Source of the DNA: Candidatus Eiseniibacteriota bacterium
GTDB taxonomy: Bacteria; Eisenbacteria; RBG-16-71-46; JABDJR01
Assembly: GCA_963762255.1 (NCBI GenBank)
Contig: CAVXKA010000002.1
Span: 928,001 to 992,000, forward strand
Reading direction: 5' to 3'
DNA: 64,000 nucleotides
Part shown: positions 7,009 through 21,170 of the stretch, piece by piece
How positions within the stretch are numbered: position 1 is the first letter of the stretch
How the letters are laid out: each line of letters starts with the position of its first letter
Position numbers and translations under genes: made by a program
The notes under the pieces: model-generated
What the model saw: the letters and a program-made list of their open reading frames with translations, nothing else
Told to the model about the DNA's origin: nothing
The model's database searches: none

Positions 7009-7410
7009 ATGATGAACCTCGACTACGCCTTCACCCGCAACTTTCCGGGGGTCACCCCCGAGGCCGCCCGCACCCGCATCGAGGCGTCGCTCAAGGAGGA
7101 GGGCTTCGGCATCCTCACCGAAATCGACGTCAAGGCCACGCTGAAGAAGAAGCTCGACGTGGAGTTCCGCAAGTACTGGATCCTCGGCGCGTGCAACCCG
7201 AGAGTGGCGCACGAGGCGCTGACCATGGAGCCGGGAATCGGACTGCTCCTTCCGTGCAACGTCGTGGTGACAGAGGACGACGCGGGGAACGCGGTGGTCT
7301 CGATCATGGATCCGCACGCGATGGTGCGCGCGATCCCGAACAACGAGCACCTGAACCGACCCATGGAGCAGGTGCGCGAGATGTTGAAGCGAGCGTTGGA
7401 GAAGGCGTAG
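7009..7410 (+). CDS. DUF302 family protein
   Basis: EGFGILTEIDVKATLKKKL, ILGACNP, IGLLLPCNVVV; GGAGG RBS. Confidence 0.9.
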   Translation: MMNLDYAFTRNFPGVTPEAARTRIEASLKEEGFGILTEIDVKATLKKKLDVEFRKYWILGACNPRVAHEALTMEPGIGLLLPCNVVVTEDDAGNAVVSIMDPHAMVRAIPNNEHLNRPMEQVREMLKRALEKA

Positions 7411-7459
7411 CGCGCGCGCATCCATCTACGCGTTTTTTTACGAATCCATCACTTTTTTA

Positions 7460-7488
7460 TTGACGTATCTGTGGCGTCGCGATAGATT
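7460..7488 (+). promoter_or_regulatory. Sigma70-type promoter of the HNH gene
   Basis: TTGACG - 17 bp - TAGATT preceded by T tracts, 53 bp upstream of the ATG. Confidence 0.65.
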
Positions 7489-7541
7489 CTCTGTGCCCGC
7501 CCACTTCCCCCGTCCTTCCACCCGTCCACGGAGGGACCGCC

Positions 7542-8852
7542 ATGTCCGCTGAAACCACTGCACTTCACACTGACACCGCCGTGTTGCTTGAGGGGGCCGT
7601 GCTCACCCGGGTGAGCACCGGGGTCGTAGGTCGATCGCCGGCCTTGAGTCCGGCTAATTCCGCATCCGCGCGCCCACTTCCCGCCGCGGAGGTCGAAGCT
7701 CGTCTGGTCGCCGCGTTGGGGGACCTGGACGCCGCGCGGAAGAACGCGGTGATCTGGTTCGGAGAGATCCTCGCCCGCAAGCTCTACTTGGAGTTCGGGT
7801 GCTCGAGCATCCACCACTATGCGCGAGAGAGACTGGGGTTCTCTCGGGCGAGGACCGCGTACTTCCTGCGACTGTGTCGGTCCTTCGAAGCACTGCCGGC
7901 GTTGAAGGAGTCGATCGCTACCGGGATGGTGCCGTGGACGAAGGCACGGGAGGTGGTGAAGGTGGCCACGCCGGAGACGGAGTCGTTCTGGGTCGAGCAG
8001 GCTCGGACCACCGGCCGGCGCGAGTTGGAGCAGCGGGTGGCGGCGACACAGGGGGCGGCGCGCTCCCGGCGGCGGGCACCAGGGCAAGGGGAACTGCTGG
8101 CGGCGAATGGCGTGGATGGCCCGGCGAATGGGCGGGCGGCCGGAACCCATGATGCGGTGGACGGCGCAGCCGGCACGGTCGTGAGCCCGGTGACGGAAGT
8201 CCCGGTCACGGTATCGTTCCAACTTTCGCCGGAGCAGTACGCGCGGTATGAAGCGATCCTGGAGCAGGCGCGCAAGACCGGTGCGCGTGGATCTCGCGAA
8301 GAGTTGTTCCTCGCCGCGTGGGAAATGCTCACCCGGGGCAACTTCGGCAGTGCACCGCCCGCGCGGAGCGGGCGGAACCCGGACGTGATCACCCGGGGCA
8401 ACATACCGGCGGCGAATGCGACTCCCGTGTCATCCGCGCCCCGCTACCAGATCGTCATTCGCCAGTGTGAGACCTGCGGCCGAGCTGAGATCGCGACGGG
8501 GCGGGGGGCGATGCCCATCGCGCCCAGGACGTTGGAGACCGCGCTCTGCGATGCGCGCGTGCATCGAAAGGGTCAACCCAACCGCGCGACCATCCCTCCG
8601 TCGGTGCGGCGCGAGGTGCTCGCACGTGACGGTCATCGCTGCCGGACGGCGGGATGCGGCGGTGTGCGGTTCCTGGACGTGCACCACATCGTGCCGCGCG
8701 AACACGGTGGCAGCAACGATCCTGACAACCTCATCACCCTGTGTTGTGCCTGTCACCGGATGATCCACGAGCGCAGCAACGCGGTTGATGCGTGGCCGCT
8801 GCGGCGGGGTTCCGGGATCGATGCTCACCCGGGTGGCACCTCCGCGGCGTAG
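7542..8852 (+). CDS. HNH endonuclease with DUF222-like N-terminal region
   Basis: VLARDGHRCRTAGC...LDVHHIVPREHGGSNDPDNLITLCCACHRMIH; extra CETC; N-terminal GCSSIHHYARERLG...LPALKESIATG..PWTKAREV; GGAGG RBS. Confidence 0.9.
   Translation: MSAETTALHTDTAVLLEGAVLTRVSTGVVGRSPALSPANSASARPLPAAEVEARLVAALGDLDAARKNAVIWFGEILARKLYLEFGCSSIHHYARERLGFSRARTAYFLRLCRSFEALPALKESIATGMVPWTKAREVVKVATPETESFWVEQARTTGRRELEQRVAATQGAARSRRRAPGQGELLAANGVDGPANGRAAGTHDAVDGAAGTVVSPVTEVPVTVSFQLSPEQYARYEAILEQARKTGARGSREELFLAAWEMLTRGNFGSAPPARSGRNPDVITRGNIPAANATPVSSAPRYQIVIRQCETCGRAEIATGRGAMPIAPRTLETALCDARVHRKGQPNRATIPPSVRREVLARDGHRCRTAGCGGVRFLDVHHIVPREHGGSNDPDNLITLCCACHRMIHERSNAVDAWPLRRGSGIDAHPGGTSAA
7599..7618. repeat. Palindrome copy 1 (perfect 20 bp GTGCTCACCCGGGTGAGCAC) inside the HNH gene
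   Basis: Read directly from sequence. Confidence 0.9.
8326..8402. repeat. Two degenerate palindrome copies TG(C/A)TCACCCGGGGCAAC, 60 bp apart, inside the HNH gene linker
   Basis: 8326-8342 and 8386-8402. Confidence 0.8.
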
Positions 8853-8985
8853 CGTGGCGCCCGTCGACCGCAGTCCGACGGGCCGCGAAGCGGGGGACCC
8901 GTCGGCGAGGACGACGGGCGCACGCGAAGCCGCGGGCGTGGGCGAGCCGGGTGGGGGCCGCACCGGGCGCTCACCCGGGTGAGCG
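8821..8985 (+). repeat. HNH-associated structured element copy A: palindrome, stem-loop, palindrome
   Basis: TGCTCACCCGGGTGGCA at 8822-8838; nested stems 8857-8921; perfect 18 bp CGCTCACCCGGGTGAGCG at 8968-8985. Confidence 0.8.
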
Positions 8986-8993
8986 TGACGCCC

Positions 8994-10226
8994 CTACGTC
9001 CCCACCTTGAACATCTGCCGCGCCTTCTCCAGCGCGCGCACCAGCGCGTCCACTTCCTCGGGCGTGTTGTAGAGGTAGAACGACGCGCGCGTCGTCGCCG
9101 GCACGCCGAGCACGCGCATGAGCGGCTGCGCGCAGTGATGACCGGCCCGCACCGCCACCCCTTCGTTGTCGACGATGGTGGCCAGATCGTGCGGGTGGAT
9201 GTCGCCCAGGCCGAATGAGATCGCCCCACCCCGCTCGGTGCGCGGCCCGTAGATGCGCAACCCCGGAACCGCGCTCAACGCCTCCAGCGCGTACGCGGTG
9301 ATCTCCTGCTCGTGACGCCGCACATTCTCCATCCCCAGCGCGGTCAGGTAGTCGACGGCCGCCGCCATCCCTACCGCACCGGCGATGTTGGGCGTGCCCG
9401 CTTCGAACTTGTGCGGCGCCTTCTTGTAGGTGGAGCGCTCGAGCCGCACCTCCAGAATCATCTCTCCTCCGCCGTGGAACGGGGTCATCGCGTCCAGCAG
9501 ATCCGCCTTGGCGTAGAGCGCACCAACGCCCGTCGGCGCGAGCATCTTGTGCCCGCTGAACGCGAAGAAGTCGACGTCCAGCGCCGCCACGTTCACCGGC
9601 ATGTGCGGCGCCGACTGCGCGCCGTCCACGAGCACCTTCGCGCCGACCGCGTGCGCGGCCTCCACAAGCCGCCGCACCGGGTTGATCGTCCCGAGCGCAT
9701 TCGACATCTGGTTGAAGGCGACAAGCTTCGTCCGCCGGGTGAGCAACTCGTCCAGCTTGCTCAGGTCGAGCGTGTAGTCCTGAGTCAACGGGATGAACCG
9801 CAGGACGGCCCCGGTGTCTTGCGCGACCATCTGCCACGGCACCAGGTTCGAGTGGTGCTCCATCACGGTGAGAAGGATCTCGTCGCCCGGCTTGAGCGTG
9901 CGCCGCGCCCACGCGTACGCGACGAGGTTGATGCTCTCGGTGGTGCCGCGCGTCCAGATCAGTTGATCCGGCGACGGCGCCCCGATGAACGCCGCCACGG
10001 TCGCACGCGCGTCCTCGAAAGCCTGGGTCGCACGCTCCGCCAGCGCGTACACCCCGCGGTGCACGTTGGCGTTGTCGTGCTCGTAGTAGGCGCGCACGCG
10101 GTCGAGCACCTGCCGAGGCTTCTGCGAGGTGGCCGCGTTGTCGAGGTAAACCAGGGGCTTGCCGTGCACGCTCTGGTGCAGGGCCGGGAAATCGGCGCGG
10201 ATCGTGTTCACGTCGTACATGGGCAT
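8994..10226 (-). CDS. sufS: Cysteine desulfurase, SufS family
   Basis: YLDNAATSQKP, NANVHRG, EHHSNLVPW, FSGHKM, RAGHHCAQPLM, RASFYLYNT. Confidence 0.95.
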   Translation of the reverse strand: MPMYDVNTIRADFPALHQSVHGKPLVYLDNAATSQKPRQVLDRVRAYYEHDNANVHRGVYALAERATQAFEDARATVAAFIGAPSPDQLIWTRGTTESINLVAYAWARRTLKPGDEILLTVMEHHSNLVPWQMVAQDTGAVLRFIPLTQDYTLDLSKLDELLTRRTKLVAFNQMSNALGTINPVRRLVEAAHAVGAKVLVDGAQSAPHMPVNVAALDVDFFAFSGHKMLAPTGVGALYAKADLLDAMTPFHGGGEMILEVRLERSTYKKAPHKFEAGTPNIAGAVGMAAAVDYLTALGMENVRRHEQEITAYALEALSAVPGLRIYGPRTERGGAISFGLGDIHPHDLATIVDNEGVAVRAGHHCAQPLMRVLGVPATTRASFYLYNTPEEVDALVRALEKARQMFKVGT

Positions 10227-20999: not shown

Positions 21000-21010
21000 C
21001 GGACGGGCGG

Positions 21011-21170
21011 GCGCGGCTCTCCGCGTGTCGCGGGTCGTCCTCGCCGAAGGGGCCCCCGCTTCGCGGCCCTTCGGACTGCGGCCGACCCGCGAACCCGCTA
21101 CGCGCCGCGCCCACACCGCACGATCACTCCATATCACGATTCGTGCGGAGTGCTCACCCGGGTGATCATC
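21011..21170 (-). repeat. ORF-free copy B of the HNH-associated structured element
   Basis: Reverse complement aligns with 8821-8934; palindrome TGCTCACCCGGGTGATCA at 21151-21168; nested stems 21028-21092; lies between convergent genes. Confidence 0.8.

Follow-up and report, generated by a model that had tools for sequence, protein, structure and literature searches.

A stem-loop in a Candidatus Eiseniibacteriota genome as a probable member of a lineage-specific family of palindromic interspersed repeats

Introduction

Small palindromic repeats shape the 3' untranslated regions and the plasticity of bacterial genomes, and their spread is understood only where a RAYT transposase or a parent insertion sequence (IS) accompanies them. 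Here, we describe a stem-loop that occurs twice in a 64,000-nucleotide stretch of the genome of a Candidatus Eiseniibacteriota bacterium (this whole stretch is referred to as the window), at positions 8835-8942 and 21006-21115. The stem-loop is probably a member of a lineage-specific family of palindromic interspersed repeats of approximately 105 nucleotides (nt), non-autonomous and similar in kind to REPINs (hairpin-forming doublets of repetitive extragenic palindromes, REPs), to the REPs and bacterial interspersed mosaic elements (BIMEs), and to ERIC. On present evidence the family is new but belongs to a class of small bacterial repeats that is already familiar, with no new mechanism or molecule.

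A REP doublet consists of two inverted REP units, each with a conserved 5' GTAG tetranucleotide. Miniature inverted-repeat transposable elements (MITEs), among them Correia, ERIC/IRU and RUP, are small, non-autonomous intergenic repeats with self-complementary ends that fold in transcripts, while the R-boxes of integrons read RYYYAAC/GTTRRRY. REPINs are described as REP-doublet hairpins of ~89 bp in which the spacer is conserved only in its pairing; they have been proposed to fold in single-stranded DNA (ssDNA) or in RNA, and are thought to be moved by RAYT (PMC3337134, as excerpted). The REPs of Escherichia coli act as terminators and mRNA stabilisers, including between convergent genes (bioRxiv 10.64898/2026.03.23.713779, as excerpted).

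Two copies of one stem-loop

The window corresponds to C2:928001-992000 of the source genome (G000), which comprises 4.14 Mb in three contigs (C1 to C3) at 66-67% G+C and is 93.6% complete. A first-pass annotation had described the stem-loop as a 92-nt structure in two copies, and every stem string it gave is present where it placed it, at 8857-8866/8912-8921 and 8875-8882/8898-8905 in copy A and at 21028-21037/21083-21092 and 21044-21051/21067-21074 in copy B. Its four compensatory changes are likewise real: the copies differ at three outer pairs and one inner pair, all of which are still complementary. The segments CCGCAGT, CGAGGA, CCGC-GAA-GCGG and GCGTAGC are indeed common to both, on the minus strand in copy B, which is the reverse complement of copy A. 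Both copies sit between convergent open reading frames (ORFs). The features of the element are as follows, with pair and cell counts taken from the 32-sequence alignment described below.

8835-8942, plus strand: copy A, whole element (covariance model, C2:936835-936942, 101.7 bits; subfamily 1, HNH-linked variant)
21006-21115, minus strand: copy B, whole element (covariance model, C2:949006-949115, 100.5 bits; subfamily 1, solo variant, outer stem GGG/CCC)
8842-8848, plus strand: 5' arm of the basal helix (stem 0), CCGCGGC, pairing with GCCGCGG at 8929-8935; compensated G/C flips between copies
8849-8851, plus strand: left G-N-A (GTA, within GCGTAGC), opposite the right G-N-A (GAA, 8926-8928) in a 3x3 internal loop
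8857-8866, plus strand: 5' arm of the outer stem, GCGCCCGTCG, pairing with 8912-8921 (helix 4; both sides changed at 7 of 10 pairs, paired in 93% of cells)
8867-8874, plus strand: 5' side of the internal loop, composed of A, CC (pairing with GG at 8909-8910) and GCAGT
8875-8882, plus strand: 5' arm of the inner stem, CCGACGGG, pairing with 8898-8905 (helix 6; paired in 97.7% of cells, both sides changed at 3 of 8 pairs)
8883-8897, plus strand: apical cap CCGC-GAA-GCGG followed by unpaired GGGA
8906-8911, plus strand: 3' side of the internal loop, CGAGGA

The element, at ~105-110 nt, exceeds the 92 nt first described, with two extra helices outside the outer stem according to the covariance model. 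Proceeding inward, a basal helix of 7-9 bp is followed by the 3x3 internal loop of two G-N-A triplets (GCGTAGC and GCGAAGC) and then by a helix of 3-4 bp; next come the outer stem of 10 bp, two single A residues facing each other, a helix of 2 bp, the asymmetric loop (GCAG(T) versus CGA), the 8-bp inner stem, the CCGC-GAA-GCGG cap and an unpaired GGGA or GGGC. The fold is very stable, with copy A reaching -78.8 kcal/mol as RNA (z -5.8) and -47.8 kcal/mol as DNA (z -4.9), values that none of 200 shuffles attained in either case, and copy B reaching -48.8 kcal/mol as DNA (z -5.2). RNAalifold returned a single hairpin of 35 pairs, and the same fold is found in all three subfamilies despite their different stem sequences. 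The element is asymmetric overall, because the reverse-strand model scores 28-45 bits against ~100 bits for the forward strand.

A dispersed family with covarying stems

The first-pass annotation counted only two copies, which holds for the window but not for the genome. A BLAST search of the 92 nt against the source genome gave fragments and 21 matches of nearly full length, distributed over all three contigs. A covariance model built from the alignment of these 21 full copies, designated subfamily 1, recovers all of them at 95.8-117 bits, and it also finds diverged copies of the same architecture at 63, 49, 37, 30 and 24 bits. Subfamily 2 comprises one copy in the source genome and one orthologous copy in a second species of the same genus (G001, 75% complete); subfamily 3 has at least seven copies in the source genome, where the family totals ~30 copies. 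The flanks of the 21 copies do not align to each other, hence no shared or conserved promoter of their own is seen.

Covariation was assessed on an alignment of 32 sequences (21 of subfamily 1, two from the second species, two of subfamily 2 and seven of subfamily 3) against a consensus structure drawn by hand from computed folds; a model-search alignment that mixes in reverse-strand echoes of the palindrome was left out of all counts. Standard pairs occupy 91.0% of cells versus 78.6% in shuffles, 21 of 35 pairs are changed on both sides versus 12.3 in shuffles, and the covariation score is 0.298 versus 0.104 for shuffled and at most 0.062 for slid controls. None of 500 shuffles reaches the observed value on any of these measures; the copies are kin, so that cells are not independent events, and the shuffle control ignores this kinship. 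Counted by eye, there are roughly a dozen independent double changes. The basal helix (helix 1) has seven of its eight pairs changed on both sides, and pair 39/81 flips from C-G to G-C in nine of the 32 sequences; the alignment of subfamily 2 is partly wrong in the outer stem, an error that counts against the structure. A lack of significant covariation among more copies had been named beforehand as one outcome that would refute the first-pass claim; covariation proved strong across these three subfamilies and two genomes.

The unpaired bases are conserved at least as well as the stems in this alignment. In the 5' loop, G41, C42, A43 and G44 are kept in 31-32 of the sequences; the C, G, A and G of the 3' loop, as well as the GGG after the cap, are kept in all 32. 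The G-N-A pattern pointed out earlier is also real, with three motifs on one strand, the G and A present in 21-23 of 23 sequences and N the most variable site. At the left motif G occurs in 22 and A in all 23, with N being T (15), A (3), C (2) or G (3); at the right motif N is A (14), G (3), T (2) or C (4); and at the cap G and A are invariant (23 of 23 each) and N is A (21), G (1) or C (1).

Selection on structure and loops alike had been proposed from the two window copies. Both are indeed conserved, but the compensation is also explicable by repeat propagation or by hairpin-templated correction. Compensated changes in palindromic repeats can arise by such correction during replication, and therefore they are not in themselves proof of a selected functional molecule. 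The compensatory pairs can stem from the propagation of master copies, from hairpin-templated correction, or from selection on a functional molecule.

Gain, loss and distribution

Filled and empty sites were compared at those loci of the source genome for which both flanking genes lie on one contig of the second species, that is, at three sites. The element is absent from the orthologous site at all three: at C2:1081k two convergent genes abut in the second species, at C1:1244k a 12-nt spacer takes its place, and at C2:884k the spacer is 47 nt long and contains a small hairpin of another kind. As copies are missing from orthologous sites of a congener, the element appears, from these alignments, to be mobile, or at least to be gained and lost. 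The basal helix is also absent from the empty sites and is, therefore, part of the element rather than a pre-existing terminator stem; the complementary flanks that seem specific to each copy represent a few related basal-helix variants with compensated G/C flips. The idea that the element had inserted into terminator hairpins already in place was considered and rejected, given that two of the three empty sites have no hairpin and that the basal helix belongs to the insert. A possible target-site duplication, CTAG/CTAC at C2:1081k, was likewise set aside, as it was not repeated at the other two sites.

A fourth orthologous site, C1:1225k (C1:1225186-1225340; L032 in the second species), is occupied in both. 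There, the copy of the second species lies in the opposite orientation, and the source genome has a truncated reverse copy beside a full forward copy, which suggests that this is a hot spot where insertion recurred or the element inverted in situ.

A scan of 41 related genomes with the covariance model gave matches in three: the source genome, the second species (three loci) and, weakly, a genome of a sister genus (G007) that shares only the 29-nt apical module. An exact-pattern scan of one genome per species (185,579 species) returned two loci, both in one other metagenome-assembled genome, and there was no match to the element in the viral contigs and plasmids searched. In the libraries searched, the element was recovered from no genus but this one, in which two species-level genomes carry it. 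In contigs from four soil metagenome runs, the depth over copy B was ~10-15x that of its flanks, as expected for a repeat, and one metagenome contig runs from the left flank into copy B, indicating that the same site is occupied in a related population. Among the RNA runs searched, none contains more than 7% of the words sampled from the region.

A wider family was also sought in metagenome contigs by means of a degenerate architecture pattern; it gave 53 loci, none of which is a member. Eleven of these represent one conserved stretch with no excess fold (z 0.15), nine of them scoring 23-30 bits, as forced by the pattern itself, and the other two 18 and 13 bits. The one of these eleven that was translated (L117) yielded an ORF resembling, by eye, a zinc alcohol dehydrogenase.

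In the sister-genus genome G007, three loci (L033, L036 and L039) carry a different repeat of ~150 nt with an identical 29-nt apical module, consisting of the top of the inner stem and the GAA cap. At the one locus examined (L033), this repeat adjoins tandem repeats offset by ~36 nt.

Genomic context

Gene context was read from a GC-frame heuristic, without a gene finder, that retained ORFs of at least 100 aa with GC3>GC1>GC2 (2625 ORFs). On this heuristic gene set, 11 of the 21 copies lie between convergent genes, compared with 374 of 2622 intervals (14%) genome-wide (binomial p 4e-5). The remaining contexts are five tandem and none divergent, with a further five overlapped by a long ORF call that is possibly over-extended. 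Copies occur in either orientation, and in tandem contexts outside the HNH units described below three are antisense and two sense to the upstream gene. The base of the hairpin lies 6-33 nt from a stop codon in many copies. There are no terminator-like sites in 7300-9300 and no Rfam matches over the 64-kb window, and in the region 8780-9000 matches at E up to 10 stay at noise level (15.8 bits or less).

The HNH nuclease unit and a short palindrome

Copy A overlaps the end of a gene for an HNH nuclease, in the vicinity of which a second, shorter palindrome recurs.

7542-8852, plus strand: multi-copy HNH nuclease gene, 436 aa; its stop codon, TAG at 8850-8852, lies inside the repeat (GCGTAGC)
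7603-7614, no strand assigned: short palindrome with TCACCCGGGTGA core, copy in the 5' part of the HNH ORF; exact copies also at 8971-8982 and 21154-21165

The Pfam HNH domain spans residues 376-411 of the protein, with its motif intact by eye, and the closest solved structures match this domain only. One homolog passes the Pfam DUF222 cut-off and is presumably akin to the actinobacterial 13E12-type repeat proteins. The source genome has five close and two distant paralogs, and HNH genes are also multi-copy in G004, G006 and G007. Behind each of the five close paralogs there is a sense-oriented subfamily-1 element, that of the fifth ~340 nt downstream. ORF calls place the stop at the 5' edge of the element in two of them, the window copy and C3:154588-153308, with the base-by-base check covering the window copy. 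Four of the five arose by duplication of a single ~1.5-kb unit, the element included, and one HNH copy lies between two inverted elements (C3:950365, plus; C3:948922, minus). Within the variable linker of the fifth paralog, a subfamily-3 element (C2:317325-317434) is in frame and stop-free, adding ~35 residues; some repeats insert into ORFs similarly in other bacteria.

In a self-comparison of the genome, the HNH unit was the only repeat above 400 bp with at least three copies that adjoins elements, and its window copy is an insertion relative to all four genomes of a sister genus (g4). At pair 50/72 the HNH-linked copies of the element have C-G and at column 68 they have A, as do subfamilies 2 and 3. 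No element lies downstream of the two distant paralogs in the source genome, nor, by eye, of any of 12 HNH loci in G004, G006 and G007, which end in short CACCCGGGTG-like palindromes, and the covariance model finds none anywhere in G004-G006. The three copies of the second species have no HNH gene nearby, and the solo copy at C1:701970 is of the "old" variant with no HNH remnant in its vicinity. Since four of the five linked copies are one duplicated unit and the distant paralogs lack the element, the link between element and nuclease is only suggestive, with one or two independent associations behind it. Indeed, the HNH genes are tied more consistently to the short CACCCGGGTG palindrome than to the hairpin element.

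The ~1.5-kb unit occupies 7405-8955 in the window and has an AT-rich, promoter-like stretch, TTGACG-17-TAGATT, at 7460-7488. The short palindrome extends over 18-20 bp around TCACCCGGGTGA, and the genome contains 70 exact 12-mers of it versus 0.5 expected; ten of these 70 lie within 100 nt of one of 26 listed hairpin elements. Every close HNH copy has one in its 5' part and a near-copy at its 3' end. Of the three window copies, those at 8971-8982 and 21154-21165 are each within ~40 nt of an element.

Other repeats and searches for a mobilising enzyme

The best integron integrase match in the source genome reaches 107 bits against a cut-off of 265. The only RVT_1 match, a 720-aa ORF at C1:145569-147731, is more than 39 kb from any element and is probably an RT-Cas1 fusion (RT, reverse transcriptase) of a CRISPR system, its C-terminal half being Cas1-like by eye; no retron-type RT was found in this genome. 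A narrow literature search on the CCGCGAAGCGG string and on DUF222 with HNH gave no description of the repeat.

Two further repeats were observed in the source genome. A fourfold repeat of ~0.5-0.8 kb and ~84-87% identity, at C1:467291, C1:612588, C1:1408213 and C2:1148449, encodes a small tyrosine-recombinase-like ORF, and none of its copies is near the hairpin element. A segmental duplication of ~23 kb links C1:45444-68144 with C2:1404987-1427725 at 82-93% identity, its C2 arm starting ~660 nt after a distant HNH paralog (C2:1403210-1404325).

Weighing the explanations

Taken as a palindromic interspersed repeat, the element would spread as non-autonomous DNA, with its single-stranded hairpin and conserved loops recognised by a mobilising protein, and would survive mainly between convergent genes, presumably because insertion at such places disrupts no promoter. 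Transcripts reading through from either neighbour would fold into a very stable hairpin, which would probably limit read-through and block 3' exonucleases as in the case of the E. coli REPs. A number of points weigh against this interpretation. The search for Y1/RAYT transposases (PF01797), whose control matched in six reference genomes, found none in eight genomes of the family, the source genome and its congener being 93.6% and 75% complete. Self-comparison of the source genome gave no parent IS with matching ends and almost no IS-like repeats, and the three pairs of filled and empty sites show neither a target-site duplication nor a terminal inverted repeat distinct from the hairpin. The G-N-A-G at the two ends is direct rather than inverted as in a REP doublet. 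The context counts depend on a heuristic gene set, and when the four HNH-unit duplicates, which are one unit and not independent insertions, are set aside, nine of the remaining 17 copies are convergent. None of the 21 aligned copies has a T-run behind its hairpin, and the role of terminator or stabiliser, though probable, is drawn by analogy.

The hairpin could instead be a cis-acting RNA, that is, a bidirectional terminator or 3'-protective hairpin selected at each locus, with its loop bound by an RNA-binding protein or RNase; we consider this unlikely. Its place a few nt after stop codons, its enrichment between convergent genes and its very stable RNA fold would all suit such a role, as would the one locus where it stands in place of a different small hairpin of the second species. 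An internal loop of two G-N-A triplets with sheared G.A pairs is stable in RNA too. The REPs of E. coli act as terminators and stabilisers of this sort (bioRxiv 10.64898/2026.03.23.713779, as excerpted). However, copies in tandem contexts occur in both orientations despite their strongly asymmetric loops, there is no U-tract and no Rfam family, and at two empty sites the convergent genes of the second species do without any hairpin. Furthermore, G.U is not in excess over A.C, with 29 G.T versus 25 A.C mismatch cells overall and nine of each in the core helices. A very improbable reading, in our estimation, is that of a folded ssDNA site for recombination, priming or promoter activity, comparable to attC, to phage or plasmid initiation sites or to the N4 hairpin promoters. 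All three GCGNAGC-type motifs are on one strand and keep their G and A while N is free to vary, and the pattern makes sense if the purine-rich strand is read single-stranded, as sheared G.A or GNA triloops, and not on the complement; it does not decide between RNA and ssDNA, because such an internal loop is stable in RNA as well. In its succession of stem, asymmetric unpaired spacer, second stem and small loop the element resembles attC, and the string of the cap, CCGCGAAGCGG, is one that we take to be the GAA-capped apex of the attC(aadA7) hairpin. The same string is contained in attC-variant oligonucleotides (PMC2811028, as excerpted). GCGNAGC mini-hairpins are, as the first-pass annotation stated, unusually stable as DNA; they are far less so as RNA, and they occur at natural sites that act as ssDNA (PMC13037366, as excerpted). 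Against this, the alignments contain no R-box, the copies are dispersed in both orientations and not arrayed, no integron integrase exceeds the cut-off, no Y1 HUH transposase was found in the genomes searched, and the only RT is RT-Cas1-like by eye. Element orientation does not track GC skew (13:8), that is, there is no replication-strand bias of the ssDNA-transposon kind. The first-pass proposal of a molecule acting as folded ssDNA rather than RNA thus found no support in the mismatch balance, the orientation relative to GC skew or the enzyme searches.

This leads to the question as to what might move such a repeat. Judging from the genomes searched, the mobilising enzyme would not be a RAYT, and the only linked multi-copy gene is that of the DUF222-like HNH nuclease. 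The nuclease gene and its 3' hairpin may accordingly be imagined as one autonomous unit, of which solo hairpins are derivatives or homing targets and in which the nuclease, by nicking or cutting the element in its folded or duplex form, triggers copying, as a RAYT-independent analogue of the REPIN-RAYT pair; we hold this to be improbable. It would account for the sense-orientation element behind all five close paralogs, the HNH copy between two inverted elements, the in-frame element in the linker of the fifth copy, the unit being the only long repeat adjoining elements, its insertion relative to the four sister-genus genomes, the intact HNH motif of the window copy, and the older state that the HNH-linked copies seem to retain at pair 50/72 and column 68. 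It is at odds with the reduction of four of the five linked copies to one duplicated unit, with the two distant paralogs and 12 loci in other genomes that have no element downstream, with the genomes G004-G006 in which the model finds no element (and G007, where it finds one weakly), with the three copies of the second species that have no HNH gene nearby, with the "old" solo copy at C1:701970, and with the firmer tie of HNH genes to the short palindrome. A yet more specific system, in which the nuclease reads the GCAG/CGAG.A loop together with G-N-A and thereby drives copying or homing in a RAYT-independent, REPIN-like fashion, is a long shot. If true, it would give a function to the widespread and unexplained DUF222-HNH repeat genes and make the element a genuine ssDNA-acting site; that no known mobilising enzyme was found, that the asymmetric loops are invariant and that HNH linkage is partial keeps this possibility alive. 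Under the interspersed-repeat interpretation that we prefer, the ~30 loci in the source genome should be annotated as repeats and not as RNA genes, and a family from an uncultured soil lineage in which no RAYT was found in eight related genomes, whose stems covary with unusual clarity, whose asymmetric loops are invariant and whose linkage to HNH genes is partial, offers a small, well-defined system in which to examine RAYT-independent spread.

Comparison with known systems

The element shows the defining features of neither an attC site, a canonical intrinsic terminator, an Rfam family nor a retron msr-msd. With attC it has in common an imperfect hairpin, an unpaired asymmetric spacer and a structure conserved above sequence; it differs in the absence of an R-box from the alignments, of an array and of an integron integrase above cut-off, and in its occurrence in both orientations. 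In comparison with the mini-hairpin DNA GCGNAGC, each element has three heptamers of this type with a variable N, but in the lowest-energy fold the two outer heptamers face each other across the internal loop and only the cap forms a GAA triloop.

MITEs, like the element, are small intergenic repeats with self-complementary ends. Here, however, the complementarity runs through the whole element, the three site pairs show no target-site duplication, and neither a parent IS with matching terminal inverted repeats nor any longer repeat that shares the ends was found in the source genome. The likeness to the REP/BIME sequences of E. coli lies in GC-rich palindromes at the 3' ends of genes, at positions that differ between strains; these REPs are ~35-nt units that are often clustered (bioRxiv 10.64898/2026.03.23.713779, as excerpted), whereas the present element is a single composite hairpin of 105 nt.

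When set beside the REPINs of Pseudomonas fluorescens SBW25 and their RAYT, as excerpted in PMC3337134, the family differs in several respects. No RAYT was found in the source genome or its seven relatives, and some copies are HNH-linked instead; the copy number is low (~30 versus tens to hundreds); and the internal loops are conserved and asymmetric. The left end reads GCGTAGC, which contains GTAG, in 15 of 23 sequences, and the right end GCGAAGC is in direct orientation. Multi-copy palindromes with a long hairpin, as expected of REPINs, are present, and their RAYT was not found in the genomes searched. The resemblance lies elsewhere: both are dispersed intergenic elements of ~90-110 nt that form one near-perfect long hairpin, both keep their pairing while the sequence drifts, and both occur as several subfamilies within one genome (PMC3337134, as excerpted).

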